This document shows positions 30,459-61,150 of a stretch of DNA of 64,000 nucleotides, piece after piece. The notes below the pieces were generated by a model, which saw only the letters and a program-made list of their open reading frames with translations, was not told where the DNA came from and ran no database searches. The stretch's first letter is position 1; each line of letters starts with the position of its first letter. The stretch comes from Phyllosticta citribraziliensis (Eukaryota). The stretch lies in NCBI RefSeq assembly GCF_038025025.1, contig NW_027117340.1, forward strand, positions 1,922,001 through 1,986,000, given 5' to 3'. A program made the position numbers and the translations under genes.

Positions 30459-30463
30459 CGGTC

Positions 30464-32674: not shown

Positions 32675-33815
32675 GAGTGTGTTGATGGAGATGGGCGAGG
32701 CAGTATGAGGAGGGACGTTCTGGAATGCATACAGCGCACCATCCAGCGAATCAAAACGACATCTGAGGAATTCATGCCACACAGTCATCTAATGGACAGC
32801 CTCAACTGCGCAACCAGCACGGCTCGGCCGAACCCAACACACAGCGGTCATCGCCATCAATGCCGTCGCCTTCGATCGCAATCTCGTCGCGAAACCATCC
32901 GTCTCACCACCATGCCGCTCTTGCGTCGTATTCCAGCAATCCAACACAATCGATCGCAATAAACCCTCACCACTTGCTCGAACACTCAATTTAATCTCGC
33001 ATTCCCTCGTCGCCACCCACTCTCTGACTCGAAGCGCACTCGGAAATCCACACACGCAAGACGTGCTGCAGCACAACGTGTTCAACACCATTATTGGATT
33101 CGAAATCAGCTTGCCTTGCTTTGCGCATATCCCATCATCCCACACGCCATCTCCCCATCTCGCCACCCCCAACCGGAGCCGTGCCGAAGGAAGGGAGGCA
33201 AGGAACAGAGAGGTAGGGTGTGCCACGCACGCACGCACGAGTGTGGCGGCCCACGGGTGCTGGTTGGGGACCACAAGGAAAATTCAAGCATCCTAGCATT
33301 CCTGAGAGGGTGTGATGGCATGCACGTGGCTGACTGGCTCTCTGGCCAATGGAGATATCGGTGATTCGGCGATTGAGGCAGGCAGGGCAAGGAGCATTCC
33401 TCAAATTACCCAACCATGATGACGACGACGACGACGGGAGGTGTGTTGTGCTCCGCGATAAACTTTGCTATGCGGGTTGCTCTTGCGCACGGCTGGTAGT
33501 CGAGGATTGAGGGCTGGGGTGTTTGAAGTTTGAGGTACTGATTCATTGGCACATTGAGGCTTTGAGGATAATGTGATGATCGCTCTGGGACGAGGTAGAA
33601 AACTGTCTGGTATCTTTTCTTGCTGTATACTATTTCAAGCCAGAAATTTACTTTGACGCTGTCTATGTCTGTAAAAATTTATGCTGATGCTGTACTGGTA
33701 TGTCATCTGTCTGTACAATGCTCATGCAATGCTGATGCTCCGAAGCCGTGAAAATGCCACACAAAAGCCGCCGTCATGCTGAATGCTCTTCCTCATCCTC
33801 TCACGTCCAACAAAA

Positions 33816-35213
33816 TTAACAGCCGACGCCAAAGTCCTTGCAGATCTCTCTTCCCTGCGCCTTGATGCCACTGACCAACCAGAGGCGGTTGTTGGTAAAA
33901 ACAAGCACGCCGCCGGGGATGAAAGCAAAGTTGTTACTCGTCTCGCCAATGTAAATCTTGCCAATGAGAATGCCCTCGGGGTTCCAGACGTGGACGCCGT
34001 CGCCATTGGCGACCCACAGGTTGCCTTCCGTGTCAGCGTGGATGCCGTCAGGGACGCCGTTGTCGGCGAAGGCAAACGTGCGTCGGTTCGCGAGCCGCTT
34101 GTTGTCGATGATGTCGTACGCGTAGACGGTGCTGGGCCGCGTGTAGTTGAACTGCATCCATTGCGCGGCACCACTGTCGGTAACGTAGCTGTAGATGTGT
34201 TAGCTCTCTACTAGGGGATGGAGTGGAAGGGGAAGGACGCACAGAGTCTTTTCGTCAGGAGAGAATTCAAGGCCGTTGGGCTCGACAAAGCCGTCAGCTA
34301 CCACTTGGATGACACCCGTGCCGGGCTCGAAGCGGTAGACCTGCTTGGGAACCGTGGCTTCGGGTCTGAAGTACTGGAACCTGTTTGGGGGAATGATTGA
34401 TTAGTTGCGAGTCAGGGGTAGATGGTTAAAAGGGGGCGAAGAGCTTGGCGTACCATCCGTAGTCGGCATCAGTGAACCAAATGTCGCCCGTCTGGCTGTG
34501 CTGGCGCACGTCGTTGATGGACGAGAAGTTGCGGCCGCCTAAGAAAGAGTTGAGGATCACTTCGGTCTTGTTGTTCGCGACGTCGACGGACACAAGCGAA
34601 GATGGGTGCTCCTAAAGCGGGTCAGCAATGCTGGACAAACCACAGTGGTCCAAATCCACAGATGATTTTCAATCTTACAAGGTCGCCCTCGTCTGCCCAA
34701 ACTTGATGGCGCGGCGGGGCCGAAGTGTTAGATCCCGGAGGATAGTACGAAGTGCCACCATTTGCGTTCCAGAGGTCGGGGTATGCGGTCGATTGAATGG
34801 ACCAGTCGTCAAGTGACAGGATGGTGATGTTGATATTGTCAGGGGGAGGACCGACGTCGTAGTTGGACGAAATAATCATGGTGTTGGTCTCCTTGTTGTA
34901 CACACCACCCTATTTGGAATGGTTAGCTTTTGGTCGGCATTAGCGTCCGGCTGGATGACGTGCCTCGTGAAATGCCTGGTGCGAGTAGTTGCCAATCAGC
35001 TTGGCCGTCGCGTTGGGGCCCAGCAAGTCTTTGAAGCTATCATGGTAGCTCAGCAAGGAAACTGCTGGTTCTACTCCGCTGGTTGCTGGAAGGGTAGAAA
35101 AATAGCTCGGGTTTGTGGCAAGTGCCAACAAATCGACTACACAAGTCAGAATCACAAGAGCAAGGCTGAGGGATTTCTGGGACAGTACCGCTGACGAACG
35201 GAACGGCAGCCAT
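33816..35213 (-). CDS. SMP-30/gluconolactonase (lactonohydrolase) beta-propeller protein; multiple introns
   Basis: Motifs AFHEGGVY, NANGGT, NFSSINDV, IWFTDADYG, PNGLEFSPD, GVPDGIHADTEGNLWV and GDGVHVWNPEG. The start codon is uncertain. Confidence 0.88.
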
Positions 35214-36501
35214 TATGTAGATAGCTATACACGAAACCAGTGCGGAGAACCAAAAGAACCAGCTTCGAGGGAGAGTTTCTGCGGAAAAGCGCCAGCGTCC
35301 CCAAGGCGGCTGCTGGTGCTTATAACGGTGCGCCCGCGCGATGGCCATGGGGAGACAAGTGCAAAAGGATTTGATGCCACGGGCCTTGCCAAGTGCCGGC
35401 CTATTCTCGACCGAGGGAAGCGGGGTCTAGAGGAGAACATGATGAAGTGCGGATTAGTTGCAGTGGTGATGTGCACCCCACCGGAGGCCATGACCAAGAA
35501 GAGTTCGGCCCGAGCTCTCAGGCACCGGCACGCCGACCTTGGAAGTTTACCGCCGACCGCCAACGACCTTTCTCCATCATCCCTCTCAGCCTCCTGCTTG
35601 GCACCCATCAACACCTCTGGGGCCCTGGTCTTGGCTCATTTCCTCGTCGCCGAAAGTCCATCACGGTGTCGTTTGCCCGCGAGTCCCTGAAGAATGACGT
35701 CCTTCCCGCCTGGCCAAGCCCGAATCGCGCCGTCAACTCGCCATGGCCGCCATATTCTGCCACGCCGCGGACAGCAGACCGGCTCGTGCTGCGCTTGCTG
35801 CGCAGCTTCACAGTGTCCGTCTTCGGCGTGGGGATGAGCAGACCAAGTAGCGAGCAACATGTACGGCTCCCTCCGCTGGCGACCGACCGAGACTGGGATG
35901 CGTATCCGTATATTATGCGACGGCTAGCAACTGGATTGAGATGCGCATCCGTCGATTAGGCGACTCTCTGCCCTTGTCCCTGACTCTTGTCCTGCTTGCC
36001 AATTTCTTGGTCGTTGGGCCAGGCTACGGCACTCTTTGGGCCTGGATCATCCGGACGTCTAATGAGACGTTGCGCAAGGCGATACAAGAACGGTGTCAAC
36101 GGCCACAGCGTGCCACAAGCAGCCACAGACGTTCGTCTTCTCTTGACTGTTGTTTACCTCACGTGCCTGCCGATACGGGTCGTTGTTCGTCTCCTTGCTG
36201 CCTTTTCATGCACGATTCTGCGGGTGGGACCGCTTTTTACTCATAAAGGCAATTCGGCTACGTAGAAAGGGATTCATCACCAGTTTCCAGTTAGCAGTAT
36301 GTTGAATTCACGACGTGAGGGAGACGCGCGACGCGAGGACGACTGGAATGTGGGACGTCTAGTAGGACAGGATTGCCACCCCGTCGGTTCTCATTTCTCG
36401 CTTCAGCTTCGAAGAGGCCATACAAAACCGACTTGGTTGTCTGCGACAGAGGTAGGAACATCTCACAAACATCGACACTCTTTTGCGACGTTCTTTCCAA
36501 A

Positions 36502-39448
36502 ATGCCACTCTTTTTCTCCAGCATCGCTGTGGCGCTGCTTTTCCTTTTCCCCAACTCGCTTGCTCTCCCACACCAAGCCGTGAATGATTTGCGGCCAAGA
36601 CAGACAGCTTCGGCCCCTGCCGGAGCATCAAGCTCCACGGCCGATCAATTGATTGAAGATATTGAGCGCCTGAACCAGACTCTGGTAAATACGAATCAGG
36701 CACTTTGGGTGGATAGAAGACTAAAGCAACACAGACCGACCTCCCAGAAGACGCCTACAATTTCTTGAATGAAGTAGGCGACAAGGTAGAAGCGCTGGAG
36801 AGTTTGTTTGCAAGCCTCCTCGGCATCTCCACATCTGCGAGATCCTCAGCGGCATACGCAACGCCAAGTCCATCTGCTTCTGCATCCCGGAGCGTCTTCA
36901 ACTCTTCCTCACCTGTGCTTACTCCGGCCATCCCCACCAACGAGCCGTTTCTCACCATACTGCCTATCCTTGAGTCGCTTATACCGACCCTCACTCCGAC
37001 GCCAGGGAACAGCACCATCTCTCCTCTCAACACTTCACTGCCAGTTGTGCCTTCGGTAAATAGCACTTCGACCCCAGTCACAAGCTTTTTGGTACCTTCG
37101 GCTCCATCGTATCAAACGCCAAACATTACATCAACGCCACTGGTGTCTACACCGACAGCGCTGAACCTCACTACGCCTTCAATTCTGACACCGACCCCCT
37201 CTTTGGCGAACGTTACGACGCCGGTGGTTTCCTTGCCAGTTGCGTCCAACGTTACTACACCTTCGCTGGCTCCTTTGATTCCCAGTCCATCCTTGGTGAA
37301 TCTCACGACGCCAGTAGTTTCCTATCCGGCACCATCCAACGTTACTACACCTTCGCTGGCTCCCTTGATTCCCAGTCCGTCCCTGGCGAACTTCACAACG
37401 CCAGTGGTTTCCTATCCGACACCATCTAACGTTACTACGCCCTCGCTCGCTCCCAGCCCTTCGTCGGTAAACGGCACAGCACCACTGGCTTCCTACGCTG
37501 CTCCATCAAACATTACAACGCCTTCGATGGCCCCTATAATTCCCAGCCCATCCTTGGCAAACGTCACGACACCGCTGGTTTTGCCCACGCCTTCCAACGT
37601 CACTGCGCCCGTGGTCTCACCTGCAGTGCCCAGCACAACACTGGGCTCTCTGAGCACAGGAGCCCCCCTCAGTCCAAGCTCGTTTTCGAGCGCTCCCTAC
37701 TCCAATATTACCAGTCACGTGATTCCACCGTATCAAGCTCCCACGTTCAGCTACGCCCCCCTGACCCCTGACTCGACAAGCGTTGGAACAGTTAGTTATT
37801 CCTCCCTTTTGCCTCCTCTGGTCCCATCCCTGGCCCCACTTTCTTCAAACAGTATCAGTCAACTTCCCTTGATCCCTGTTCCTACAAGTAGCGATGGCCC
37901 TTTCAGCAACTATCCTCTTCCTTCCCTCCTTCTACCTTCTCCCTCAGTCAATGGATCCATTCTCCATATCCCGACCCGAATGCCAATTCCACTCTCTGCC
38001 CTCTCGGCTCTCAATGCTAGCTTGGCAACCCGGACTGCCAACGTGAGCTATGCCACCCCCATCATTTCTACCTCTCTTCTGTCATCTCTAGTCACCTCCG
38101 TCCTTGGAGGCTCAGTCACTACAGTCTATCTTTCAGTAAGCTAAAGGCTGCATTTCCAATCCTCCATTTCTTTATTAATTCCTTTACATCAGACCGAGAC
38201 CCTCACAACGACAGTATGGGTGTCGCCAACCCCGTTGGCATCTCCACCCTACCGAAACTCGACGAGTGAGGAACGCTCGCTCGCCTTGGAGGACGTTTGA
38301 CTGACTTTTCGCAGCCCTCTTCAACCCCACTGGTACCAGCTAGAAACGTTTCGTTCGACCCTCTTGCTCGCAACAACATCGCCTTGTACTATAATCCACA
38401 AGAAAACAGCTCGCCCCTTGACCTCGAAAACTTTTGCCGAAATAATTCCAACTTTGACGTCATAAATTTACCCATCATCTCCGGCTTCAATGGCTCTCTT
38501 CCCATCATCACCGATTTTCCAGGCTGCGGCCCTCTGGACGAACTCACTGGCCTCCGCGACTGCACTGAACTTGGATCCAGCATCTCAGCGTGCCAGTCCC
38601 AAGGCAAGAAGGTCCTTATCAGCTTGACTGCCGGCCGCTTCAACCAAAATGGCAACACGACAGCAACACCAACAGACATTGCGCCCAGCGTTAGTTCGCC
38701 TTCGGTCACCGCCCTTGCCTACACTCTCTGGTCCATGTTCAGTGGGCAACGCCTCAACGGCTCGACATTTGCCCCGCAGCCACTCGGTAGCTCCACGGCC
38801 GTCGACGGCTTCGGTATCGAAGACGACCTGGCGCTCGCCTATCCCTTCTACTACACGCTGTCTGTCGAGCTGCGGCGCCTCTTCTCCTCCCCAGCCATCT
38901 CCACTCGCATTTTCCGCGGCGCCACACCTTCGCTGCTGTCGGTTGCGCAACCTTGCGTCCCGCTCACGGCGCAAGCGTCAGCCTCGCTGCCGCTGTTCGA
39001 CCTCGTCTACCTGCGCACGCAGGGCACTGATTGCGCATCGAGCGCCGACGAGCTGCGCGACGCGACCGAGGCCTGGACCAGCGCCTTACAGACAATCAAC
39101 CTCGAGCTGCAGCTACAGGAGGGCGTCGTTCGTGCCAACGAAACCAAAATCTATCTTGGCGACTTGTTGCTGAGCGGTGGTGCGGTTGCCGACGGAGAGG
39201 GTGCATCCTTCAGAGCTGCCAATGGCGTTGGCCCTGGCTCTGTCATCGGCGCTGCTGCGACTGCTGCGCTGGACAAGGCCCAACAAGCTCAATCTGCGGC
39301 GTCCTTCGTGGACAAAATTGACGCGCTGTGGAGCGAAAAGCCGCGCGTGGCCGACTTGGGTGGTGCTGCCGTCTGGGTCGATGGTGCAGATACAGCCGTG
39401 GTGAGCGAGTTCCTCGCAAGCTTGAAGGGCGCCATGACCGTGCCGTGA
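36502..39448 (+). CDS. Secreted Ser/Thr/Pro-rich mucin-like protein with a C-terminal degenerate GH18 (class III chitinase-like) domain
   Basis: Signal peptide MPLFFSSIAVALLFLFPNSLA, then an S/T/P-rich region. GH18-like motifs follow: NIALYY, ISACQSQGKKVLISL, LWSMFSG, PLGSSTAVDGFGIED and LGGAAVW. Joining of the exons into one gene is inferred from splice signals. Confidence 0.75.
37195..37610 (+). repeat. Coding tandem repeat with a 90-bp (30-aa) period: SNVTTPSLAPLIPSPSLxNxTTPVVSYPxP
   Basis: TCCAACGTTACTAC recurs at ~37245, 37335 and 37425 (the last with one mismatch), with further degenerate copies downstream. Confidence 0.9.
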
Positions 39449-40353
39449 TGACGATGGTCACAGCATCGCTTTCGATTCTCTCTTCTTCCCATTTTTTCTT
39501 CTCTCTTCTAACATTTTCATGAAACTTCTTCTTTCGGGTCAGGCGACAGGCGGTGCAAACAAGCAAGCGAGCAAGAGGAGTTGGGATGATTATGCGGTGT
39601 CGCGGCGCTGTTTCTACTGTCTGTTTGTGTACTTGATGTGAAGGTCTCTCTGTCTGTCTTTCCTTACATCTCCATGTCTCTCTCCAACTACTCACCTTCT
39701 CACATCATCATCATAGTCGCTCTTTAATCACTGGTTACGGAAGGGCAGGATTTGGGGGTTCGGAGTCTTCTTTTGCTTCGTCACAACATCTTTACCTATT
39801 TTGGTCCACCACTCTTTCTAATATGATATCCCAATTGTCTTCTTGTACTTCGCGCTGACGCGCTCCCAGTGACTGGTGATTGGCCTTCTGAGCATGCTGC
39901 TCGATTGCAGTCTTCAGACCAACCACTGGCTCTGTCCTGAAACAATTCGTGCCGTAAATATTGCTCGCCTCTTCAGCATCGTCATCCCCTTTTTTCCACT
40001 TCGCCCCCTACTCACGGATCAAGGGGGAATCACACCAGGACCTGGCAACCGGATGACATGCGTCCCCATCACCCGGTCAATCATGTAGACTTTCCCTGGT
40101 AACGGCTTACTGGGGTGTGCAACATGGGAGTGAGGGAGACTTTTTCCTGTTCCTTGCCTCGGCGTCTCCATCTCTCCCTCTTGCTTATTTTTACTCGTCA
40201 CCCTGGCTGTTTACCGGTTGCCCCTTGCGGAGTGTGTCATCTGCTCGCTAACACTATCAATGCAGCCGAGACGCACCTGTGAATAGACATCGGTACATTA
40301 AAGGATTCTCGTATTGAAAGTCGTCTCACCGCTACAGAATAAACATCAACCAA

Positions 40354-42423
40354 TCAATTCACATCCCTCGAATGCTCCAACACGCCCTTCTTTTCCACAA
40401 TGACGTCCGTCTCCCGTGCAGAGCTGTCGATATCAGTCTCCTCGACTGAGGTCTGGTCGTATTGCTCTTTTCCTGCTGCTTGCTTCCGCCAGTACCACCG
40501 CTCCACGAATCCCATGACCAGGGAGCACCAGATGGTCAGCGCGACGACGAAGACGAGAGCCGCTGGGTACCCGTGCGTTTTGCGGTACGTGGGAGCATCG
40601 GACGCGGGGAACATGTATTGCGAGAAGGGCGTGAAAAAGGCGCTGTGAGGTTGTTAGACTAGTTTAATGTGGAAGAATCTCTCCAGCCCAACAAAGTGGA
40701 GCAGAGAGGAAAAATGTTACTCACTTTCCGATAGACATCATCATCGCCATCACAAAGGCGCGAAGCTGATTGTCACCACCGCAAAGACTGTTGACCCATC
40801 CGCTGAGCAGCGGCGAAAAGCAGCCGTACGACCCTTGCATAAAGAAGGCCGCCATCTTGAGCGCCGTGCTGGCCGGCCATACCACGTAGATGACGTAGCA
40901 AAAGACCATGACGGAGCCGACGAACGCCATGACAGGCGCGCGGCTCCCAATCAGGTCGCTTGCCGTGCCGCTGCCGACCATGAAGAAGAAGTTGACAGCG
41001 CCAACAACAGTCGGGATATTGTTGATTTGCGGAACCGAGTAAACGTTGCTGCCATCGGCACGCTTTTCACTCTTGAGCCACAGCGCCATCCATGTTTGCA
41101 CGTTCGTGCCGCAGGTGAGACACCATAAGCTGTAGAAACGGGGTCAGCAGATATCCACAGATTCGGATAGGGGGACCTCTCACCTCCACGCAATGCAAAA
41201 GACATAGAGTTGCCAGCTCTTTGCGATGCGTTTGACTGCATCCCAGTCTAGTTTGCCCCATTCTTCCCTTCCTTCCTCGCGGATACGCTCGCGTGCGCGC
41301 TCTTTCTCCCATTCTGTCAACCAAAACGCCGTTGTCGTCGATGGCGTGTCCGGGAAGAACACCATTCCGTAGATAACGACAGGCATAGCTAAACACGCGT
41401 CGAAAACAAACAGCCACCTCCATGCGCTTAGACCTCCTACTCCGTCCATCCCGGTGTAAAGTCCCGACTGGAGATACCCAGAGAACATTTGGCCGAGCAC
41501 TCCGCTGATGACGAAGAAGGCGGAGCGGCGTCCCAGCTCTGACGCACGGTACCACGAGCCGATCTATGGAGGGTTAGTATCTGAACAAGGACCATTGCGG
41601 GGATTCGTGTAAAAACAGAAGACGGAGTAGCGCGCGGGGAAAAGGGGAAAAGGGTGGGTTTTGCGGAGCCGAGCTGTTCAGGCGCAGACCGAAGGCGAAG
41701 AGGGGAAGAAGAAAAGCATAAGGACTGAAGAGCGGGGAAATAGGAGTGTGGATGTGGCTTCGCAGATCTCCACTCCCGTCCCAGGTTCAATTGCTTGTCG
41801 ATTTAGCCTTTAAGGTTGTTCGGGACAAGCTTTTCTCGGAAAAACAGGCTGCAGCGGTTCTGGCAAGGAAAGACTCGAAAGAAGAGCCACAGGAGACAAA
41901 AGATGAAAAGCAATTTCACTCACCACATAATGTAGCCCTGGAAGAGCTGCAGACTCAAACATGCCGATGAAGAAACGCAAGACGTAAATCTGCCACGCGT
42001 GGTCCGACTTGTAGATGCCTAGGACGAAGAACGACCAGGTAAGCAGACACATTGGAAGCCATATGCGCGGCCGAACCACTGTCAAGATCAGATTCGAGAT
42101 GGGAGCGCCGATGATGTATCCAATGTTGTAATAGGTGGTAAACAGATTAAGTTCATTGCCGTCTGCTTTCAGTCAGCACTTTGCTTGTGCGCATTAGAGC
42201 AGTGATTTGGACACTCACACAATTTAAGCTCTTCCTTCATGCCAGAAACGTATGCGTTGGAGACATTGCCCGTATCCAGGTATTTGATGAAGAAACACAA
42301 GCAGCTGTATGTCAAGATGAAAATGTCCAGCTTGCGAATCAGCCATTTCTCTTCTTTACTCGTGCCCGGCTCGTGCCAGTGAAGCAGCGATGGTCTGGCT
42401 GGCCGAGCTTTGCTGCTAGACAT
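40354..42423 (-). CDS. MFS transporter of the allantoate/pantothenate (Dal5/Fen2/Liz1-like) family; multiple introns, one ~355 nt
   Basis: Motifs EEKWLIRKLDIFILTYSCLCFFIKYLDTGNVSNAYVSGMKEEL, FESAALPGLHY, GQMFSGYLQSG, GGLSAWRWLF and FFPDTP. Confidence 0.92.
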
Positions 42424-42937
42424 GGTGGCGGCTGTGTTTGAGGAAGCGCCGCTGCCGGTGTACTGCAAAAGCGCCGCGGCGACCACACGGCTTCTTCAGC
42501 ATTTTCTAGTGCTACTCTTTTATCGCCACGCTACCTTGGCATTGAAAAGCTGGAGCGTTCGTGTCGTCTGTCGAATGAAAACTCTGGATGGCGCAATCAG
42601 TTCGACGACGGCTCAGTATTCTGTTTTGGTCGGGCAAGAGTGGGGTTTCGGTTGAGATAGGCATGCCGACGCCGGGGCGATGGCCGGACTTTGTTCACAG
42701 CATGACTGGCTATGCGATTTGCCATATTCGCGCAAGTATCTGACATCCAGAAGCTTTGGTGGGTGTTGCGCTCGTCAAAATCCCGAGTTGTGTCGAAAGT
42801 TTGGTGTGTGCCGCCGTTTCCTAGCCCTTGAAAATCCAAGGAACATCAGAAAAACGTGCTCGCCGAAAGTCAAGTAAGTAGGTCGTTTCGGGCGAAAACA
42901 TATCTCAAAATGCTCATTAATCACAGTAGATCGCAAA

Positions 42938-43970
42938 ATGCCAAGGGTCACTCTGAACGGAGCGAATTTCGAATACAGCTTGAAAGGTCCAGAGAACGCA
43001 CCTCTTGTCATCCTTCTCCACGGAGGTCGCGGATTTGGTAAGTTGAATCGGCAACTGCAGACTGAGGAGAGACTCATTCAGACAGGTGACCATCGCTCGG
43101 ACTTTGCCGCATTTCAAGGGCTCTCCAGCGACCATCGAGTTCTCGGATTCGACTTCCGCGGCCATGGATTGAGCTCGTCCACAAAACCGTACACGTTCAA
43201 GCAACTAGTCGATGACATTGAAGCCTTCCGCCAGCATTTTGCCGGCACGGAAAGAGCAATTGTTGCTGGAGGTAGCTTTGGAGGATATCTTGCGCAGCAA
43301 TATGCCATCACATATCCGGAAAAGGTGTCACACCTAATCTTGCGAGGCACAGCTCCATCTCACCACCGTACGTATGCAGCCCTGCTTGTCGAAAGCGCTG
43401 ATTGAGACCGTGCAGATGAAGAAGAGGCCATCGCGACCTTCAAGGCCCGTTTGTACAGAGCCCCAAACGCTTCTTTGGCCATGCTGGAGAAGGTGTTTTC
43501 AAAATTCGAGGATGATGAAGAGTTCCGTTTGATCATGTTTGCTCTGGGACCTCTTTACGTCGAAGAATACAACGCGGATGCTGCACTGAGGAAGAACCGC
43601 AACACCGTCTTCCGGGCGGAAACTCATAGTAAGAGGCTCATGAAGAAGAGATGTTACCGCCGCGCTGACAATGTTTGGTAGACGACCTGTACAGCGAAGG
43701 CGAAAAGTATTTTGATTATCGCAACGACCTGGTCTCGGTCAAGGCCAAGACATTGGTCATAGTAGGAAGCGAGGACTGGATCTGCCCGCCAAGTACGTCG
43801 CAAAATCATGGAAAGAGTCCCAGCTGACGTGCTTGACAGCCCAATCGAGGAGCATTGCGGAGCGCATTCCAAAGGCGCGTTTGGTGGTGGTTCCGGGAGC
43901 AAATCACTCGGTCCAGGCGGAGAAGAACGATGTCTTCATTGGCGAAGTAAGGAAGCTGTTGGCGGCATGA
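42938..43970 (+). CDS. Alpha/beta hydrolase, proline iminopeptidase-like; 5 exons
   Basis: Oxyanion motif LHGGRG, FDFRGHG, nucleophile elbow GGSFGG, acid VGSEDWICP and histidine GANHSV. Confidence 0.9.
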
Positions 43971-43980
43971 TGTGGTACCA

Positions 43981-44156
43981 CAGTGGATATTGAAAGAAAT
44001 GAGGCCTGCTCAGTCTACAGCTGCAGCAACAAACAACTCCCTGTGCGCAATTACGATGGCTCACGACTGCTCACTAAGCGCAACAGTCATAGAGAATGAA
44101 TGCTCCCTACGCGCAGCTGCATCACTGGAATGTCTCATTTCTTTCAAATCCCACTG
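43981..44156. mobile_element. Fold-back element, copy C
   Basis: Inverted repeat CAGTGGATATTGAAAGAAATGAG / CTCATTTCTTTCAAATCCCACTG. The minus-strand core is GCAGCTGCGCGTAGGGAGCATTCATT. Confidence 0.65.
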
Positions 44157-44468
44157 GAGATGGAGTGTGGTGACAGGAACGATGGAAAGAAGGATGGGAA
44201 GTGTTTGGGCGCAACGAACTAGCCGACAGACTACCCGGCGATAAGCCCACTGCTCCGACGTCGGCCGCCGGATCACGCAATCTCAGACCGACCGTGAGCA
44301 ACCACACGCTCTCTCGTAAACTCCACCCAATTCGGCTCGGCAAACGATCCCGATAACGATCATTTCGCCGGCCTTTGCTCTTGGTACCTCGAACGATGGA
44401 GAATTCTGTTGCGTCGCGACGTGGGATGACCACGCCTGATTTTCCATCTCTCCACGTGAAACCTGACA

Positions 44469-47400
44469 ATGGCTGAGAGAGGAATCTCCATTACCATTGG
44501 TGAGCCACTTCTATGCTAATGAAATGGAACAAAAGCTGACCTGAAAGACCGTGGTGGAACATTTTGCGATGTCTGGGCAACGACTGCCGACGGGAGAGAG
44601 TTCGTCTTCAAGCTTTTGTCCGAGGATCCGAGTGCATACAAAGATGCGCCGACAGAGGGCGTCAGAAGAGTACTGGAGCTCGTGACTAGATCATCACTGC
44701 CAAAGAATGAACCAATCGACGGAAGCTTGATCGAGTCAATAAGAGTCGGCACCACCGTTGCAACAAAGTAGGTCAACTTGATGAATTCTCCCCGGAGCCT
44801 GCGTATCCATGCTGACCCAACAGCGCGCTTCTCGAACGCAAGGGAGAAAAGATTGCGTTGCTCACCACAGATGGCTTCAAAGATGTCTGTCGCATTGGAG
44901 ATCAGACGCGACCAAAGCGTAAGGACTGCAGCCATTCAGCCATCTCTTGGGACTCGCACTGACTGCCTTCAGTATTCGAATTGAACATCAAGAAACCTGG
45001 TGCCCTTTACTCAAAAGTCGTCACCATTGATGAAAGAGTTACCGTCGAAGACTATATTCTCAATCCATCTCCAGTGCCCATCGATATCGCGAGTGATCCT
45101 GCCCTGGTCAAAACAACCAGCGGTGAGATTGTGCGAATTCTCAAACCTCTGCAGGATGTGCAGGTAAGAGAGAAGCTGCAGGCTCTGTTTGACGAAGGAT
45201 TCCGGTCCGTGGCTGTTGCTTTTCTTCACTCATATATCTTTCCAGGTTTGTTCCGCGCAGCAGCACCTCAATCACTTCTAACAAAGAGACAGAACACGAA
45301 CGAAAGGTGGCAGAGATTGCTCGCCAAATCGGGTTTGAATTCGTCTCCCTTTCTTCGGATTCTAGCGCAAACATTAAGATTCTGAACCGTGCTACGTCTG
45401 CGTGTGCCGATGCATATCTTTCACCTCACGTAAAGCGCTACGTCGATGGATTCCTCTCTGGCTTCTCAAAACTGCCCAAAAGAGTCGACTTTATGCAGTC
45501 AGATGGCGGTCTTTGCACTGCATCCAAATTTACTGGCTTGAAAGCAATTTTGAGCGGCCCGGCCGGCGGTGTTGTGGCCATAGCCAAGACCTGTTATGAT
45601 CCTTTAGAAGGGAGCTCCGTTATTGGGTTTGACATGGTAAGTTTGAAATCCAGAATCGAACGTACTAGAGCTCACTCTTCTACAGGGTGGAACAAGCACA
45701 GATGTTAGCCGATTCGCCAAGAAATTCGAACATGTCTTTGACACCAACATTAGTGGGACGACCATTACTGCGCCCATGCTTGATGTCCGGACAGTCGCCG
45801 CTGGCGGAGGCTCTATCCTCAGTTGGCGGAATGGATTATTTGTCGTTGGACCAGAAGTAAATCCCCAGACCTCGTTGCAAAATTGTTCCTGACAGTTCGA
45901 AGAGCGCAGGAGCAAACCCAGGTCCAGCCTGTTATCGCAAGGGAGGCCCATTGACTGTAACGGACGCAAATCTCTTCCTTGGTCGACTGCTCCCTGAAAG
46001 GTTTCCGTCGATATTTGGCCCGTCTGGGGACCAGCCTCTGGATGCAGAAATTGTCAAACAAAAATTCCAGGAACTAACTGCGACCATCAACAACTCTTTC
46101 GATAGCGAGGAATTAATGACGCCGGAAGAAGTTGCTTTCGGCTTTTTAGCAATGGCAAACGAAACAATGAGCCGCCCGATTCGGAACATCACAGAAGCAA
46201 GGGGATTCACCATAAGCTCGCATAACCTTGCAAGCTTTGGAGGTGCAGGAGGTCAGCACGCTTGCGCCATCGCTCAAATTCTGGACATTCCCCGAATCAT
46301 CATCCACCGGTTCTCGTCGATCCTCTCTGCCTACGGCATCGGTCTGGCAGATATTGTTGCAGAAACCGCCGCACCATCAGCATGCCGATACTCGGAAGAC
46401 AACTTGAAAGATATTCTCGTCCAGTTTGAGGAATTGAAAGCGAAGACGACAAATGATCTGGTCTCCCAGGATGTCCGCCAAGAGCTCGTAGAGCACGAAT
46501 GCTTCCTGAACATGAGATATGAAGGATCGGACACAAGCCTTTCCATACGTCAGCCAGAGAACGACGACTTTCAGACGTCTTTTGTTGAAACGCATCGTCG
46601 GGAGTTCGCCTTTGAGCTGGCCCGCCCAATCGTGGTCGATTCTATCCGTGTACGCGGTGTCGGCAAGAGCAGAGATCAGGACACACAATCCGCCAGTCTT
46701 TTCCAGGAATTGGAAAAGCTGCAGAGGCTTCCTGCGCCAGAGGTACAAAGTACACAATCGGTCTTCATACAAAATGCCTGGATCGACGTGCCGGTATTCG
46801 AGCTTCCTTTGCTCGACAAAGGAGCTGTCCTGTTTGGGCCGGCCCTCATTGTCGACAATACGCAAACCATTCTCGTCGATCCTGCCTGGAAAGTCACCGT
46901 CCTGCAATCTCACATTCTAATCGATGCTCCTGTTAAGGAAAAGAAGGAATCCGGCGATCAGAAAGGAGTCAGCCCCGTCGAACTGTCCACTTTTGCCAGT
47001 CGTTTCATGAGTATAGCGGAACAAATGGGGAACACGCTCCAGAGGTAAGAGCATCAAGGTGGGTGTCAATGGCACCGCCGGGAACTGCGGCTGCGTCCAC
47101 GGAGCATTCGTTCCCTGCCACGGCGTTCTTTTGACACCCAGTGTACATGTTTCCACTGTAGACCAAAATTACTAATTTTGACCAGGACATCCATCAGCAC
47201 ATCGATCAAGGAAAGATTGGACTTTTCGTGCGCTCTTTTCACACCTGATGGAAAGCTAGTAGCCAACGCACCACACATTCCAGTCCAGTAGGTCACTGAC
47301 TCACAGGAAAATGTCAAACTGCTGACCGAACGTCCAGCCTGGGCTCCATGCAATTTGCGATCCAATACCAGCATCAGCTATGGGATGGTAAACTTGCTCC

Positions 47401-49018
47401 TGGAGACGTTCTCCTGACAAATCACCCCGACTGCGGAGGCACTCATCTGCCTGACCTGACGGTCGTGACGCCGGTCTTCAACGACGGCCAGCTCATCTTC
47501 TACGTGGCCTCGCGAGGTCACCACACGGACATTGGTGGCATCGGCATTACAAGCATGATACCAGATTCGAAGTTCCTTTGGCAAGAAGGCCTCGCAATTA
47601 AGAGTCTCAAAATTGTCAGCGGCGGTGTGTTCAGCGAAGACATAGTGCGCAAAGCATTTGCAGACGTGGCCAACATGCCCGGATGTAGCGCGACGCGCCG
47701 AATCAACGACAACATTTCTGATCTCAAGGCTCAAATCGCGGCGAACCAGCGCGGCATCACGCTGCTCCAAAGGATGTGCGGTGAATTCGGTACTCCCAGC
47801 GTCCAGAAGTACATGTACGCCATCCAAGACAACGCTGAACTGGTAAGCAAATTCACCTATTCAAGGCTTGGTAGCAAAAGTTTTGGCACACAGAACCTCA
47901 AATTGGGGGCGGATAGGGAGCATTCAAGCTACCCTGCAGGAGGGTTCTCAGGAGCGTTCATTAGCTCCAACATGCGGGGGCTCATATCTGGGTGTGCCAG
48001 GGCTTTGGCGACCGAGCCCCGTTCGCAGCGTTCAAATGGCTGATCAAAGGTTCAACAGGCTGTCAGGAATCTGCTGAAGCGCGTCGCAGCCTCTCATGAA
48101 GGGAAGGCGCTGCAAGCAATTGACTTCTACGATGACGGGACGCCCGTCGCGCTCCGCGTCAGTATCGACGGCGACTCTGGCTCCGCCGTCTTCGACTTTA
48201 CCGGCACCGGTCCACAGACTCTGGGCAACATGAACTCGCCCATCTCGATCACCCATTCGGCCGTCATCTATAGCTTGCGCTGCATGATCGACCTCGACAT
48301 CCCACTCAACCAAGGCTGTCTGGCACCAATCGACATCCGCGTCCCCAAGGGCACAATCCTCAACCCTTCTTCCTCCGTCGCCGTGTGCGGCTCGACCATC
48401 GCCAGCCAACGCGTGACAGACGTGATCCTCCGCGCCTTCAGAGCTGCCGCCGCGTCGCAAGGCTGCGCCAACTCGTTCGGCTGGGGCATGGGCGGCAAGG
48501 ACCCAGAAACGGGTATCACGACGCCGGGCTGGAACTACGGCGAAGCGCTCGGCGGCGGCAGCGGTGCCGGCCCTGGCTGGCACGGCACGTCGGCCGTCCA
48601 GGTGCACTCGACAAACACGAAGACGACGGACCCCGAGGTCATCGAGAAGCGCACGCCCGTCTTGGTGCGCCGCTACGAAGTCCGCGAGGGCACGGGTGGA
48701 CGCGGCGCCTGGAATGGCGGTGACGGCGTCGTCAGGGACATCGAAGCCCGCGTGCCGCTCAAGTTCAGCATTTTGAGTGAGCGCCGCGTGTACAGTCCGT
48801 ATGGCATGAACGGGGGCCGTGATGGCAGCGTGGGAAAGAACTTTTGGATTCGTTCGAACGAGGATGGCGAGCCGGAGACGATCTCGCTCGGCGGAAAAGC
48901 GGTTCTGAATGCGCAGAAGGGCGATAGGGTCGTCATTTGCACGCCTGGTGGCGGTGGATGGGGCGCTCCTGAACGAGATGCACCAGACGGAGATGTCAGA
49001 CCGTTGCCGACGCAGTGA
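44469..49018 (+). CDS. 5-oxoprolinase / hydantoinase-oxoprolinase family enzyme (fused A+B type); about 10 introns
   Basis: Motifs [90 protein letters not shown] and TPGGGGWG. Orthology to canonical OXP1 is not established. Confidence 0.95.
47060..47140. mobile_element. Fold-back element, copy D, inside oxoprolinase intron 47045-47185
   Basis: Terminal repeat TGGGTGTCAA / TTGACACCCA, inner stems CGCCG/CGGCG and GGAAC/GTTCC, core GGCTGC-N6-GGAGCATTC. Confidence 0.6.
47865..48018. mobile_element. Fold-back element, copy E, inside oxoprolinase intron 47843-48058
   Basis: Left arm GGCTTGGTAGCAAAAGTTTTGGCACACAGA pairs with TCTGGGTGTGCCAGGGCTTTGGCGACCGAGCC. It shares its arm and the 18-mer GATAGGGAGCATTCAAGC with copy A in reverse orientation. 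Confidence 0.7.
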
Positions 49019-49360
49019 TGAGTGGAAAGGCTACGATTGTTTCAAACGAGCGCTGTAGTGGAATGGCACGCGCGTAGTCTTGTTAGCAGAAACGGAACCA
49101 GTCAAAACCTCTGAGATTTCTCTCAACCTCCTGACGGCAACATGCATCCGTTTTTGAATTTCAATGCCTACATGTGTAACGTGCCTTCAAGAAGTGCCCT
49201 CGGATGTTGGTATAGCCAGTGAGCAAACGGCAAGAGTAAGAGCAAAGGGATGGACATGGCAAAGTCTCCTCCGAATCCCGACACATCATCAGGGCATTGC
49301 ACCCCAATTTGCAGCAAGAACTCACCACCCCCTCAATTCTGCCACGAGCCCTCTCAGTGC

Positions 49361-52300
49361 TCACAGCACGCCGTATCTCGCCTCGTCCAAGCGCGTCGTC
49401 TCGCGCCAGCTGTCCTCCAACCAGTCGACCTTCACCACCCGCGGCACGCGCGCTCCAGGTGCCATAGTCTCAGAGATGCGACTGCGCAGCAGCTTTGCGC
49501 GCTGCTTGAGTGCTGTGTCGACTTTGGTGTTGTCCCCTGCGGCCTCAACCTCAGCGCCAACAACAATATGTGTCACAGCCTCTTCATCCAGCCTGCGTGC
49601 AACCTGTCCGCCAGCAAAGCGGACGGTATTCTCAGCAAGCGCAAGGCGAGTCGAAGTGGGGGCGCGCGACGGATCATTGTCAAAGAAGACGACGCAGCCG
49701 CGGAACATCCACCCAGGCAAGTCATTAAGTTCATCGCCGCCTTCGTCGTGCTCTTCCATAACCTGTTGCAGAAAGCGCTCAGCCGCGCTCTTGCCCTCGC
49801 CCGACGAGTGCTGCGCCGGCATGCGCTCAACCAGTTCGCGCAGCTCCGCCACACCGGAAAAGTCGCGCGTGAAGCTGTCACCAAAAGCGTCGACGGCGGT
49901 CGCGACCGTGTCAGGCGCGGCTGAGGGGCAGTCGGGCTTAGCGTGCAAGACGTGGATGGGCTCGAACGGCAGCAAGACGGGGCCTCGCGGAAGGTCGGCT
50001 TGAGCCTGCGCGACGCAGGATTGCAGCCAGGCTGGGCGGTATATGGAGTGCGTGTTTTTCTTGCGCAACGAAGCTACGGCGACCACGTTCTTGTCGGCGA
50101 TACAGATGATGGGCGGGGTTCCGGGAGCAGGAGGGGTAGAAGGATTCGCCGTTTGGATGATGGAGCCGCCGTTCGCTTTGACGAGGGCTTCCAGTTCCGC
50201 TTTGGTCTTCTTGGGCGGCGCTGTTTCTTGTCCGGTCATAATGTCTGCCGTATATATTGTCAGCCTGTTGTTGGTCAAGTCCCAAGAGGAATATTCGCAA
50301 CCTACAAAACGTCATGCCTTCAAACACTTTGGTCTGCAGCCCAGCATACGGCGTTGCCACCTCTCCATCTTGCCCAGCAACGACCATTTGCTTCTTTTTC
50401 CTGCGGCCGCCCCTTTTCCTTGTATCGTCGACCTTGAACTCCTTTTTTTCAGCATGTTCCTTTTCCACGTTGGCTTTGAGCTCCAGAAATTCCTGAATGG
50501 ACAGGGCCTGGTCCCACTTCTTGTCCTTGCGTAGTGCCTTGAATCGCGGAAACCTCAATGTGAAGCCCATACGGAACTGATCTGTACCTGTTATTGAGGC
50601 TGCCTTCACAGACACGACAACAGACTCGTCCGGTCTAATCCACACATCCGGTCGCTCATATTGCTTGTCGCCGCCACCGAGCTCAATGAATTCAGTCGGT
50701 GGTCGTTTAGGATCCCATTTCCGCCACTTGTCGCCCGTGTAGTGACGGATATTGGCATAATCATCTGAAGTCATGCCACCGCCCACCTTGAAAAACGAAT
50801 AACACTTCATGGGATTTGCGCCATGGCTGATTTGATGCTGGTCCACGCGCAGCCCACACATGAAACTAGACAGCTTGCCGCCCCGGTGTCCGGATCCGTA
50901 GTATCCACCGACGATGACGCAGTCGAGATCTTCGCCGAACTCGGTCATGTACTCCGGCTTGACCTTTATCCAGTCGTCGTTGCGCTCGTTCAAGCGGTAT
51001 GCAGATCGCGGATTCTTGAGGACGAGACCTTCTGAGGCGTCTGCCACCACTTGACGCAGCAATGGGTCGATTTCGGATGCGCTGCGAGCCTTAATGTGGG
51101 GATGAATTTCCAGACGACGATCGATGGACTTTACCGTCGACTCGAGCGCATTTCTGCGGTCGCGAAGCGTCCATTGAGTGAGCGGCTGATTGTTCATGTA
51201 AAGGCAATCGAACACCTTGAACAATGGCCTCCTGACGCCTCCGAACGGATTCTGTTGCTCTGACAAGGCCGCAGTCTTGAGCGTCCCGAAAGGCGCCATG
51301 GCATCCTGTTCCATGTCCCAGGTGATCATTTCTCCGTCAAGAATAATATTGTTGACGCGTTCATCGAATGCATCCTTCAAATGCCGGGTCAGAGCGCTCT
51401 TGTCATCTTCAAAACTGCTTCCGTATAGATAGGTGTATTCCTTGGCCTTGCGAGACCAAAATGCGAATCGCTTGCCACCAGGAACGCTTTCATCTTCCAT
51501 CATGTGCAGCTGCATGCGCTCGCCGTCCAGTTTTTCTTCAATCCAGAACTCATCGTCGTCTTCTTTTGGTTTCATCCTCTTGACCATTTGATCAAAAGAT
51601 CGCATTTGGAAGGCGGCCAATTGGGGCTGAAAGCATTGCATCAAGTTGACGCCTCTCTCCTCTCCATCAAGGCGGATCGAAGGGTCGTAAAGTTCCCAGC
51701 ACACTCTACGCAGGCTAGACGAGACGTTGAATAGACTCTCAGCATCTGGGTGCCAGCTGTTGAAAAGGGTCTTTTCCGTGGCTCCCACCTTCATCTGGCG
51801 GAGAATGATTCGGATGAGCCACATCATCTCCTCAGGATTCATGCGCTGGTAGAACTCGCGGAAGATGGGGAGTTGATCGTCTTCTTTGGACAGGACAGAG
51901 AGCTTGTCGAGCTTTGCATTCACCTCGGCAATGGTCATGTCGCCAGGTTTGGTCCGGATAGGCCTTTTCAACACGACTTCGTAGCATCGTCCAGCGAAGT
52001 CGCCGGCCATGGCTGCTGTAGCTTTGAGTCCAGGCAGCTTCCAGTTGAGCAAGTTGAATCCGTCTTCAGAATTCTTGTCAATGCGCAGTACACGAACCAA
52101 GAGCTTCCCAATGGCCTTTTCTTTGAGGCCGTACATGGCTCTGTCGCGATCTTTCTCTGGCACAATCAGGCGGAAGGCTGGATAAATGTCGTTGCCGACC
52201 TGCGTGCGCCATTTTGAGATGAAGCGATCGATGATGTTTGCTCGAACTTCATGCGGCGCCGGATTCGAGGGACCGTACGGCCTCTTCTTGAGAGCAGCGC

Positions 52301-54934: not shown

Positions 54935-55742
54935 TCGTGCGAGACAGCGCCTTGCTTCTAGAGCGACACTCAGATGATCTCCTTTCTGGCTTAGCACAAT
55001 ACCCCAAATCAAGTTTGACAATTCGACAGTGGCCTACATGGCACTCGAAATGGCTCCCAACGACTTGTCATTACACCGTGAAAGATTGCGTCTATTCTTC
55101 CTCTGACTAGATGTAGATGGACACCCAGGGCCGATTGACCCCTTTCAGCCGCGTGCTACACGCAACGGCGCGTGGCTCGGAGCGATCCTAACTCTGGGCC
55201 CGGTCCCGAAACCAAGCCTACTTGGCACTGGTTTGCTCCTCGGGTACTCCCGACGACGTTCGAGGTTAACAAGCTTCCCGCCGGTCGACCCCGGGATCTT
55301 CGCTGGACCGCAACTGCCGAGACTTGACGGCGGACGACCACTTCGGATGTCAAAAGATGGAGCATGTCACTTCCTGGCCTTGCGCTTCGGCTTAGGGAGA
55401 AGTCGTTCTTCACCGCAGCTGCGTTCAGGGAGCAGTCGTTGAACACCGCCGCTGCGCCTGGGAACTGTCGTTTACTATTCTCGTTGCGCTCAGGGCGCTG
55501 CCATTCATTTCACGTCCACTGTACGGACACTGTTTGCAAAGCACCATTTCGACACAGGAACAACGATCGAAGGGTGAAAAATTGCAATTCTTGCGGCTAT
55601 TACAGAAACGCTATGAGATGCCACGCTAACTCCCCATTCAAGACTGCCTCTTTTCTGACCAGTAAACCTCTACTTGCGACGCCAATCCGTTGAGAAGAAG
55701 GAAAAAGAGAAGGGAAAGAAAAGCTTTTCCGAACAAGCGAAT

Positions 55743-56650: not shown

Positions 56651-59600
56651 CTTGATGGTCTTGCTTGGTTGGTGTCGAGGTTCAAGTCCAAGGTCTGTCG
56701 TGGTTTGTTGTCTGTGTAGAGAGGAGAACTGGAAAGAACAGCGGGCAAAGGTTTTGATTACTGCGGCGCTGGAAGTGACGAATGAGGAGGAGTGCCGAGG
56801 AGCTGTCTCGATGCGCCGAATGAAGGTGTGTTGTGTAGTGTGTGCCTGAGAAGCAAGTCACTGGGGAAAAGTCAAAAACATAAGTAGAAAGTTGGAGCCT
56901 GGAGGAGCATCAAGGCGTTCTGGTGGCTGTACATTTTTTGACCCTGTGTACCCACTTGTTTCGTTTATTCTTATCGTTTGCAAACGGTTCCTTCGTAAGG
57001 CGCAGCCGTCGGAGGGGTTTTTTTGGTGGTTGGAGCATTTGTCGTTTTCGTATCTGCCGATACGAAAATCATTCGTGCCTGAATCTGGCTAAAAGCCCGT
57101 GCAGGACCCACTCCTCCCGCGCTTCTTCCAAGGGCCTTGGCAACACGAGTACGATTATTCTTTGCCATCAAACATCCGCCGAATCTGATTGGACGCTTGC
57201 CTTCAACATGCGGACGGCAGGCGGCTCTGTCCGCCATTTGCGGCTAAAACCTTTTCTTGTCCCTGTCGAAAATCTTTCTTGGCCTTGACCACATCGATGA
57301 ACATTCGAATTCTCTTCTCAACAGTCAACCGTTGACAGGGAAAACGGCATTGAGCAGTTTCCTACCTAGCCATCATCGAGCAACGTCGATGCCTTCAACT
57401 CGCCGACATGTGGCACTTGCGAATCCCCAGCAAGAAAGGCGCAAGTTTCGCATCAGATGAAGGCAGGCTCTCTTTGTTGTTTGTCTGAAAGTCGGCAAGA
57501 GGATACCCACGGCGATCATACTCGGCTCGCATCCGTGTTCGTTCCTTCGGTTTCGGCTGTGTCTTCCAATTTTCCGGACCGCATTTTGCAAATATGCGGA
57601 GCATACATATGTGGCTGTCTAGAGCCCTGCATGTTACACGTGTTGCCTAGCTGTCCTACTGGCCCCTCATCCTGCGAAAACAACATCTGCTCCGCGCACA
57701 ACTCAGAATACGGGAAGAGCACAGCCTCGAATGGCTCGACGCGTCGGGACTCTGGTCTTCAGCGGCCCAGCCTCCCTCGGGCTTCCGATGTTCTTCGGTT
57801 TGCCGAACGGATGTCCGCATTTAAAACCGAGAGCAATCGCTGAATTCCTCCTGCTGTTCTGCTCCCACCCTTGAGTCGACGGGTCTGCCATTAACGTTTC
57901 CTGGACCAAATGTAGCAAACGGCAGAACGGCTTGGAAGATCGTCCATCTCCCTTCTGCGTCCCCACCAGGAGAGAGCATTAGCAGCAGTGCTTGCGTTGT
58001 TTGCGATTCGTTCAAGACGTCGTTGCACCGGAACTGATACTTCGGCTGCCATTCCAGACCAGAGAAGAACCACACATCGGATTTGAGGGTGGAGCTGCGT
58101 CAAGGAATCTTTCAATAGCTGCGTCACGGAAGAGATGGAAAACAAGACGTATCGTTGGGACATCCATGCGGAAAGATTGCGAAAACTCAGCCGGAGCGCT
58201 TGCTACGCTACCTGCGATGACGTTGGTGCGCAAGGCGGCCCGGAAAGAGATGACCACCGGCTCCGTTGCCGTCGTTATCAGGGCACCAGGCTGGATTTAC
58301 GCACTCTGGTGGTCCGGATTCGAATGAAAGACGATCTCTGAGCTATTCCCGGGAGCTCGAAAGCCCGAAAAATCGTAGTCACTTCAGGCTGCCGAGGCTG
58401 GAAGATTGCTGTTCTCAAGAACGTCATCAGCGTGGTGACTGGCATGGTCTATCGATGGAAAGACAACGTACAGCTAGTTGGTTTTGTGTGGGATGGCTAG
58501 CGCCGAACCGGACAAGCGGGCAGACGAATTGCGTCAATCCAGCTAGAAGCGACTCGGCGCATGCAGCAAGACGCTTCGAAGGCGATTTTGGCCTAACTGA
58601 CACCTCGATGTCTCGTACACTTTGCTGCCCTATTGGTGGTTCCGACAAGCGAGCTCTAATGCGCCTGACCTAGGAGCCGCGCTACTGTCTATTCCTCGGT
58701 TGATGCTCTCACGCCAAGGTCTCAAACGCACCCCAAGTGGCGAAGAGGAGAGTTGGAGGTACCTTCTCGATTGTCGATTGAGCCAGAATTCTAGAAGTAT
58801 CGGCAACCGCGGGATCGACCGAAGAAAGCTCCAACGGTCCAAGTCTTGTTCGCCGTCAAGCCTCGTCGGTATCTTGGCTACTCAGTCACCGACTTGGCTG
58901 GGCCCAGTAAAACACCACGATCCTCCAGACGGACTCCCTGAATCTTTTGCAAAGACTAGCTTTTATGCCTCGGTAAGATAGTGGACCTTGGTAACGCCAT
59001 CAAACGGTCTTGCCAATGTTTTTCTCTCTTCTGCGCGACCCACGTGGCCGTTGAGGCCTAGAGGTTCTCCGTTGTCGTCACTTGCCTGGAGTAGCCAGGG
59101 CCTTCCCATCGGCCTCGCGTGCAAACAACAGACTGCATCCATGGCGGCCGTAGCGGACGTAACCGAGGACCTGGAGCCTTGGGATCCGGGCATGACGGCC
59201 ATGCGCAATTCGAAGTTTCATGCCAGCGCTAGAACGATCCCGCTTTCCGGAACCCGGGGAAAGTGAGATCGTTGCCTGTGGCCTTGGAGATACTGACCAA
59301 GCGGAGGTGATAGATGATACCTCCTTTTACCACGGTGACATCCAGGGGATCTGCATCCCCCTCTGCAGATGAGTCCGGGGAGCTGTCGTCCAACACCACA
59401 GTTGCGCCTGAGACACTGTCGTTTACCACTGCTGTTAGACTGAGGGAGCATCAATTCTTTTGGCATCTACTGCGCTGAAGATCTGCGACGCGGAGTTGCC
59501 TACCTTCCGGTGCTAGACCAGAAGCACGTTAGTCTCCGACGCCCAAAGTTCCATGTTTCGCTGAGGCTCGAGTTATCCACGATACACCGGTCAGTCTTGG

Positions 59601-59879: not shown

Positions 59880-60645
59880 ATGGTTCTCAAGTCTTCTCTC
59901 GTCCTTTCAGCATTCCTTGGACTGGCTGCCGCAGCGGCTATCCCCCGATGTGACGAATTCGAGTCTGAACAGGGGACAATCAGCCGACGGTCGGATGTCG
60001 ATATACAGGCCGAAGTCGAAGTCGAACAAGACAACAAGGGAAAGATTGGCAAAGGAAAATGCGCCTCCGTAATGGTCGTCTTCGCTCGTGGGACGACTGA
60101 GATTGCTCCGCTCGGAACGATTGTGGGCCCTCCTCTCGAAACCGCATTAGAGGCCATGGTGGGCAAGAAGAAGGAGGTCATGGTCATGGGCGTGGACTAC
60201 CCTGCCGACGTTGCCGGATTCTTGGTGGGTGGTGACGCCAACGGGAGCGCCATGATGGCCGCGACGGTCAAGGAAATGGTGAAGAGCTGTCCAAATTCGA
60301 AGGTCGCAATGGTCGGCTACAGGTGAGATATTTCCTCCCTGTCCTGTTTTGCGTGGCCTCGGAATTCCAACTGACAATCTCTATAGTCAAGGAGGACAAC
60401 TCGTCCACAACGCAGCCGCACAGCTCGACACTGCCGTTGCCGCTCGGGTCTCTGCTGCCGTCATCTTTGGAGATCCAGACTTCCCCAAGCCTGTTCCAAA
60501 GATCGATCCGGAAAAACAAAAGGTCTTTTGCGCCAAGGGAGACGCCATTTGCAAGGGACAAGCCATCATCCTGCCTCCTCACCTGAGCTATGGTAGCGAC
60601 GCAGAGGCCGCGGCTCAGTTCATCATGGCCAGCTATGACGTCTAG
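59880..60645 (+). CDS. Secreted cutinase (CE5); 2 exons
   Basis: Signal peptide, VFARGTTE, GVDYPAD, GYSQGG split by the intron, IFGDP, CAKGDAIC and HLSYG; the catalytic triad is intact. Confidence 0.95.
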
Positions 60646-61150
60646 AGAGTACATCAATGTCGGGGCGTGGGCGTCACACCTTTTCTCTTCAGGGACTTTG
60701 CGATTCGTTGATAGATTTCTCTGCACCTAATTTTCCTGGCCCTTTTCATCAGCAAAGGCATAGCGTTTTAGCGTGGTAGTACAGGACGGCGTTGATGATA
60801 ATAGAAAGAGTCGACAATGGCCAGTATGCCTTTGTTCATGTGTGCCATGACAAACGATTCGCGGCGTGGAGGCGTCCGGAGACAACACCGGGATGACGTC
60901 TAGAGAGTACATCAATGTCGGGGCGTGGGCGTCACACCTTTTCTCTTCAGGGACTTTGCGATTCGTTGATAGATTTCTCTGCACCTAATTTTCCTGGCCC
61001 TTTTCATCAGCAAAGGCATAGCGTTTTAGCGTGGTAGTACAGGACGGCGTTGATGATAATAGAAAGAGTCGACAATGGCCAGTATGCCTTTGTTCATGTG
61101 TGCCATGACAAACGATTCGCGGCGTGGAGGCGTCCGGAGACAACACCGGG
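60635..61150. repeat. Perfect 258-bp direct tandem duplication
   Basis: 60635-60892 and 60893-61150 are identical by eye (ATGACGTCTAGAGAG...GACAACACCGGG). Confidence 0.95.

Follow-up and report, generated by a model that had tools for sequence, protein, structure and literature searches.

A MITE-like inverted-repeat element inside a spliced intron of a Phyllosticta 5-oxoprolinase gene

Introduction

MITEs, of which the mimp elements of Fusarium are an example, provide a close template for a repeat that we describe here from an intron of a 5-oxoprolinase gene of Phyllosticta citribraziliensis (contig NW_027117340.1, positions 1,922,001 to 1,986,000; this whole 64,000-nt stretch is hereafter the window, and all positions are counted from its first letter). 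Like a MITE, the repeat is non-coding, measures about 155-210 nt, has no Pfam match, and carries terminal inverted repeats, with 27-nt arms that are 78% complementary in the intron copy and exact 23-nt ends in a second copy, element A. Its copies are dispersed over promoter or UTR regions as well as an intron, with two in the window and more among the contig rows listed for four public sequencing runs, and it forms a predicted hairpin once transcribed. It departs from a MITE in that no target-site duplication was recognised, in that it comes without a known autonomous partner or link to a transposase, and in that its interior is built of a ~33-nt unit that further inverted-repeat elements and a short tandem array also contain.

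Elements that create introns form a second point of comparison. Introner-like elements of Dothideomycetes exceed regular introns in length, are structured, and have been linked to the gain of introns (PMC3609843). The intron studied here likewise belongs to a Dothideomycete, occupies a lineage-specific position, measures 216 nt against 48-73 nt for regular introns among the joints listed, and has a stable predicted structure (z -3.9). Unlike introner-like elements, the repeat unit here carries neither splice sites nor intron ends (similarity starts at 47865), and its family also has copies outside introns. Introners derived from DNA transposons (PMC9860276; PMC12130899) share with our repeat a non-autonomous nature, inverted ends, and removal by the spliceosome. 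Their intron borders coincide with the element ends, adjoin them, or fall within the target-site duplication (PMC9860276), whereas here 17-40 nt of unrelated sequence separate the borders from the repeat and no exon sequence was recruited. Judged by this placement of unit and borders, the intron repeat is neither an introner-like element nor an introner. Nothing relevant on MITEs or introners in Phyllosticta or Botryosphaeriales turned up in the literature searched.

Two further systems involve pairing within introns. Zipper stems of Saccharomyces cerevisiae form between the donor and the branch point (PMC12350175), which is also where the stem predicted here lies, with linkers within the published limits. 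Unlike the yeast stems, this stem consists of the inverted ends of a repeat, belongs to a genome whose introns are very short, and is a predicted fold. The symmetrical stwintrons of Hypoxylaceae (PMC8469720) are likewise fungal, have inverted repeats of tens of nucleotides that may give double-stranded intron RNA, and are without flanking duplications. Their inverted repeats are terminal and the whole intron proliferates, whereas the arms here are internal and the family is also found outside introns. Set against these systems, the locus works like a MITE passenger with a zipper-stem-like fold and is no new kind of system. Our preferred reading, to which we give a probability of roughly 0.6, is that a MITE-like repeat entered a short intron downstream of its donor and upstream of its branch point, and that splicing removes it as a passenger.

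Results

The 5-oxoprolinase gene covers at least 44523-49018 on the plus strand, its start being unmapped, and its 216-nt phase-0 spliceosomal intron occupies 47843-48058, beginning with GTAAGC and ending with AACAG. Two lines of evidence establish that this intron is real. First, the Pfam domain Hydantoinase_B continues across it. The exon on its 5' side (47300-47842) matches profile positions 58-218 (E 8e-60) and the exon on its 3' side (48059-49015) matches positions 221-519 (E 2e-100), so that the profile runs from 218 to 221 over the intron; the 66 residues translated from the intron itself matched no Pfam family. Second, contigs of four public runs (X1, X2, X3, and X5) were compared with positions 29500-49400, a comparison in which 15 of 71 joints, 24 of 263 loose-end rows, and 26 of 743 pieces were listed. 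One contig each in X1 and X3 joins 47841/2 to 48058/9, skipping exactly 216 nt with GT..AG ends, at a contig depth of 300 in X1 and 4.67 in X3, and the DNA-like runs X2 and X5 have no such joint among the listed rows. X1 and X3 represent one coded organism from two studies; the RNA label of both is a guess, and their RNA-like reading relies on the GT..AG joints. A preliminary description of this DNA had proposed a search for RNA splice junctions, and the joint was found in both RNA-like runs.

The 14 listed joints that resemble introns all come from X1 and X3. Twelve of them skip 48-73 nt, in keeping with the earlier remark that most introns here are short, and the remaining two, of 141 and 216 nt, both lie within the 5-oxoprolinase gene. 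Between these two long introns is a plain 50-nt intron (47288-47337, plus strand) that is absent from the listed joints and was recognised from reading frames and the ortholog alignment. The 216-nt intron is in frame with both exons, comprising 72 codons with a single stop at 48041-48043, and its retention would truncate the protein. A protein search for reading frames of close relatives that run into the intron yielded, among the best 120 of 1285 matches, none above 79% identity and none covering the intron-coded tail. Within the 3' part of the intron, the motif CTGAT (48040-48044, plus strand), read by eye, lies 15 nt before the acceptor and 21 nt after the stem described below; it fits the fungal CTRAY consensus and is the putative branch point.

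The repeat copy in the intron extends approximately over 47860-48023 on the plus strand, with the stem proper at 47865-48018. Its homology to an intergenic repeat some 17 kb away had been claimed before and is borne out by our comparison. That relative, element A (30250-30460, minus strand), sits between divergent genes; its inverted ends are exact over 23 nt and separated by 154 nt, and it has two internal 33-nt units. Aligned with the reverse-complemented right end of element A, the left arm of the intron copy (47865-47891) has 28 identities in 32 positions (E 9e-5 within the window). The right arm agrees with element A at 28 of 37 positions, and an internal stretch agrees at 23 of 26. A 20-mer pattern of the arm core had 3 matches against 0.00 expected from shuffles, and an internal 14-mer had 4 against 0.39, a count that none of 100 shuffles reached. 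The longest exact string common to the two copies is the 18-mer previously noted (47912-47929). Its existence is confirmed, but it is internal to the repeat rather than part of the arm, within which the longest exact run is 11 nt. The 18-mer lies in an internal unit of ~33 nt (47903-47935, plus strand), followed near 47946 by a diverged second copy of the unit.

Contigs that follow the repeat and then continue into unlike flanks mark its ends. Among the rows listed, such contigs end at 30253 (6 in X1, 7 in X3, 6 in X2, and 12 in X5) and at 30459-30463 (8, 18, and 19 in X5), and others stop matching at 47864 (3 in X2 and 11 in X5). Further copies of the family are thus present elsewhere in the genome. 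The consensus of the loose ends at 30253 corresponds to the outer arm of the intron copy, which implies a full arm of ~32-35 nt and a copy spanning roughly 47860-48023; on that span, ~52 nt of unique intron sequence remain. Because only two full copies are readable, the ends of the family are approximate. No flanking direct repeat that might be a target-site duplication was seen by eye at either copy, where the ends are certain only within a few nucleotides, and a search of Rfam over 46900-48200 gave 0 matches at E values up to 1. The preliminary description had placed the element within the intron rather than equating it with the intron. This placement holds, since the other copies diverge at 47864, element A has no counterparts of the flanks of the 216-nt intron, the splice signals all lie in those non-repeat flanks, and the ortholog junction considered below has neither lost nor gained residues.

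The inverted ends are predicted to pair in the pre-mRNA with high probability. The left arm and the right arm (47992-48018, plus strand) are 27 nt each, and 25 of the 27 arm positions are paired in the MFE fold, four of them as G-U (at 47869 and 47881-47883), with two positions unpaired. A stem of ~30 bp with several G-U pairs had been noted; the G-U pairs are there, and the length comes down to about 25 bp. The fold of the intron has an MFE of -81.8 kcal/mol against -64.9 +/- 4.3 for shuffled sequences (z -3.90), with 1 of 200 shuffles as good, and in a 416-nt context the 25 stem pairs have a mean probability of 0.97 and a minimum of 0.61. The antisense strand folds less well (-65.9, z -2.6), leaving the sense strand 16 kcal/mol better. 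All six differences between the arms are G on the plus strand in the right arm, and four of the six form G-U pairs on the sense strand, for which the binomial P is 0.04-0.10. The stem is flanked by 22 nt toward the donor and 40 nt toward the acceptor, and these flanks together hold the donor, the putative branch point, and the acceptor. The resulting 62 nt agrees with the earlier estimate that folding would return the donor-to-acceptor distance to ~60 nt.

The second long intron of the gene (141 nt, 47045-47185, plus strand), seen as a GT..AG joint in X1 and X3, also carries a hairpin, and a ~33-nt unit is common to both hairpins and to other repeats of the window; neither point figured in the earlier account. 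This hairpin (47061-47139) spans 79 nt with 12 pairs at a median probability of 0.99, and has in its loop one ~30-nt unit related to the interior of the 216-nt intron element. Its distance is 16 nt to the donor and 30 nt to a TACTAAT motif. The intron folds with z -2.5 in sense and z -0.9 in antisense. Without their hairpins, the 141-nt and the 216-nt intron both come down to 62 nt. Their flanks resemble neither each other nor those of element A.

Upstream of the 5-oxoprolinase gene lies a distinct inverted-repeat element (43981-44156, minus strand) with 44-nt arms that are 70% complementary, which holds one ~33-nt unit on the minus strand. Near it, contigs of other copies end at 43973 and 44008 in X1 and X3 among the listed rows. 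The unit is further found twice in element A, once just after it (30492-30522), and in an intergenic array with a 33-nt period at 55394-55456 (TRF: 1.9 copies, 83% matches). Another short intergenic array of the unit is seen at about 59370-59450, and neither array has obvious inverted ends. An nhmmer profile built from seven units recovered only its 7 training units and 5 weak neighbors (E 0.22-9.7); the search is circular and added no new members. When the four inverted-repeat elements were compared by strand (30235-30465, 43975-44162, 47045-47185, and 47843-48058), the G-rich, unit-sense strand folded better in all of them, also relative to shuffles, which suggests that the asymmetry is family-wide. 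The better-folding strand is the sense strand of the gene in both hairpin introns, although two cases carry little weight. Transcription-linked mutation bias was considered as the sole cause of the asymmetry and rejected, since element A folds better on the minus strand and the transcript contig there follows the plus-strand gene.

The named proteins nearest to the 5-oxoprolinase are the oxoprolinases of Phyllosticta citrichinensis (96%) and P. capitalensis (93%), followed by that of Neofusicoccum parvum (77%), which places the DNA in a Phyllosticta-like member of the Botryosphaeriales (Dothideomycetes). The proteins of P. capitalensis and Neofusicoccum read NAEL directly into AVRN, without a gap, at the junction 47842/48059, and thus no residues are lost or gained at the 216-nt intron. 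In the P. citrichinensis protein model (P0121), DNAEL is followed by VSKN, the first codons of the intron, and part of the next exon is then skipped. This suggests that the intron is present in P. citrichinensis and mis-annotated there, the model error probably being caused by the length of the intron. In X5, a coded relative, a contig over 47794-48439 has 38 differences in 646 nt and 0 gaps, so the intron of that relative is equally long. X5 also has two or three versions of the locus at 45423-46389, with 30, 46, and 157 differences among the listed pieces, indicating that this run holds more than one related genome or haplotype.

Among uninterrupted reading-frame fragments of more distant fungi, all 12 that span the site of the 216-nt intron (6 of the 10 relatives in one alignment and 6 of 6 in another, with 8 of the 12 on contigs of at least 20 kb) read straight through it. 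They include P0128, which is closest among the sequences from outside Phyllosticta. This makes the position of the intron lineage-specific, and the intron could be young. The site of the 141-nt intron is read through in 7 of 8 fragments, the eighth (P0006) diverging 4 codons upstream. The site of the plain 50-nt intron is read through in 9 of 10 spanning fragments, P0128 breaking there. The hairpin introns are thus not singled out by an unusual position. The short, empty orthologous intron that the preliminary description had proposed to look for was not found: the X5 relative has the full-length intron, and the 12 more distant fragments have none. A metagenome scan for orthologous loci reduced 289 pattern matches to 3 confirmed loci, all at 43% identity and as such uninformative for an empty-site comparison.

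Several other features of the window were recorded. A perfect tandem duplication occupies 60635-61150 (258-nt unit, 2.0 copies, 100% matches). A repeat with a 90-nt period at 37245-37454 (2.3 copies, 89% matches) lies inside a region of very high depth in X1 (36804-39459) and probably represents repetitive coding sequence within a strongly expressed gene. Three inverted-repeat pairs, at 3606-3804, 9592-9786, and 26902-27085, have arms of 19-22 nt about 145-157 nt apart and may be further MITE-like elements.

Discussion

We propose that a non-coding, multi-copy repeat of about 155-165 nt with terminal inverted repeats landed in an ordinary short intron. The host intron would have existed beforehand at a length of about 52-62 nt. 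Pairing of the repeat ends would then loop out about 154 nt, and the linkers between donor and branch point, 22 and 21 nt, would stay in the range of the usual 48-73-nt introns, so that the repeat could be removed together with its host. Three observations bear on how the repeat came to lie there, namely splice signals outside the repeat, copies outside introns, and seamless orthologs. Together they rule out insertion of a transposon into an exon with recruitment of splice sites close by, for which residues missing from the ortholog alignment were sought and none found, and they argue against a repeat unit that comprises the whole intron. Whether the stem contributes to splicing is a separate matter. 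We consider it possible, at somewhat below even odds, that the stem measurably helps; otherwise it would be a neutral by-product of the inverted ends.

A stronger version of this idea holds that the hairpin is needed for splicing or clearly improves it, in the manner of a zipper stem, and that this is why the insert survived. Such a role does not exclude the insertion of a passenger repeat. The linkers of 22 + 21 = 43 nt in the 216-nt intron and 16 + 30 = 46 nt in the 141-nt intron fall within the limits given for yeast zipper stems (PMC12350175), a fit that for the 216-nt intron relies on the branch-point motif read by eye. The 62 nt left in both long introns, the better fold of the sense strand, and the G-U pairs at four of the six arm differences point the same way. 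However, any insert with inverted repeats would produce this geometry in a normal intron, and the spacing arithmetic is therefore no evidence of selection. The binomial P for the G-U pairs is modest, six G-ward differences on the plus strand would also be expected from a mutation bias of the sense strand, and the two copies outside introns show this strand asymmetry too, so that it characterises the family rather than the intron setting. Nor are such stems always helpful, as disruption of one yeast zipper stem lowered intron retention (PMC12350175). The hints of selection on the stem are accordingly weak. The earlier proposal that the insert is tolerated because folding restores the spacing is compatible with these data, and we regard a clear benefit to splicing as plausible but somewhat doubtful.

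Birth of the intron together with the element, as an introner-like element, an introner, or a captured filler fragment, would replace the invasion of an older intron. The Dothideomycete host and the length and strong structure of the intron recall the introner-like elements linked to intron gains (PMC3609843), and the sites of the 216-nt and 141-nt introns are read through in 12 of 12 and 7 of 8 fungal fragments, respectively, P0128 included in the former. Against this, the repeated part falls short of both splice sites, by 17-22 nt at the donor and by 35-40 nt at the acceptor, and the two long introns and element A have unlike flanks. The missing residues that landing in an exon with recruitment of splice sites would entail are not seen, and the plain 50-nt intron is lineage-restricted as well. 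Because no empty ortholog has been seen, birth with the element retains some probability, but we think it unlikely.

The hairpin might instead have a function of its own as intronic RNA, be it as precursor of small RNAs, as a snoRNA-like RNA, or as a regulatory structure. In favor of this, the hairpin is long, near-perfect, and transcribed in sense orientation, and several family copies appear in the rows listed for the RNA-like runs. Yet Rfam gave no match, and the structure derives from the inverted ends of a dispersed repeat, and we hold this explanation to be very improbable. That the similarity and the hairpin arose by chance, for which only the short length of the matches speaks, is already refuted by the 20-mer and 14-mer counts, the fold z-score, and the independent copies in four runs.

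This locus is a clean case of a repeat hairpin riding in an intron, backed by RNA-like runs. It is also of use for annotation, as the P. citrichinensis gene model appears mis-spliced at the 216-nt intron. A bolder reading is that the inverted-repeat elements with ~33-nt units form an undescribed family of Phyllosticta-like Botryosphaeriales, whose G-rich strand is selected to fold as RNA, which colonises or founds introns in sense orientation, and whose hairpin looping is a general rule that lets a fungus with ~50-nt introns carry inserts of 80-160 nt. We rate this as speculative and unlikely; if true, it would link MITEs, introner-like elements, and zipper stems. If the stem does buffer the insert, it would offer a simple physical reason why transposon inserts can persist in very short, intron-defined fungal introns, and the 5-oxoprolinase gene would hold a natural test pair, the 141-nt and 216-nt introns, both of which would fold back to 62 nt.
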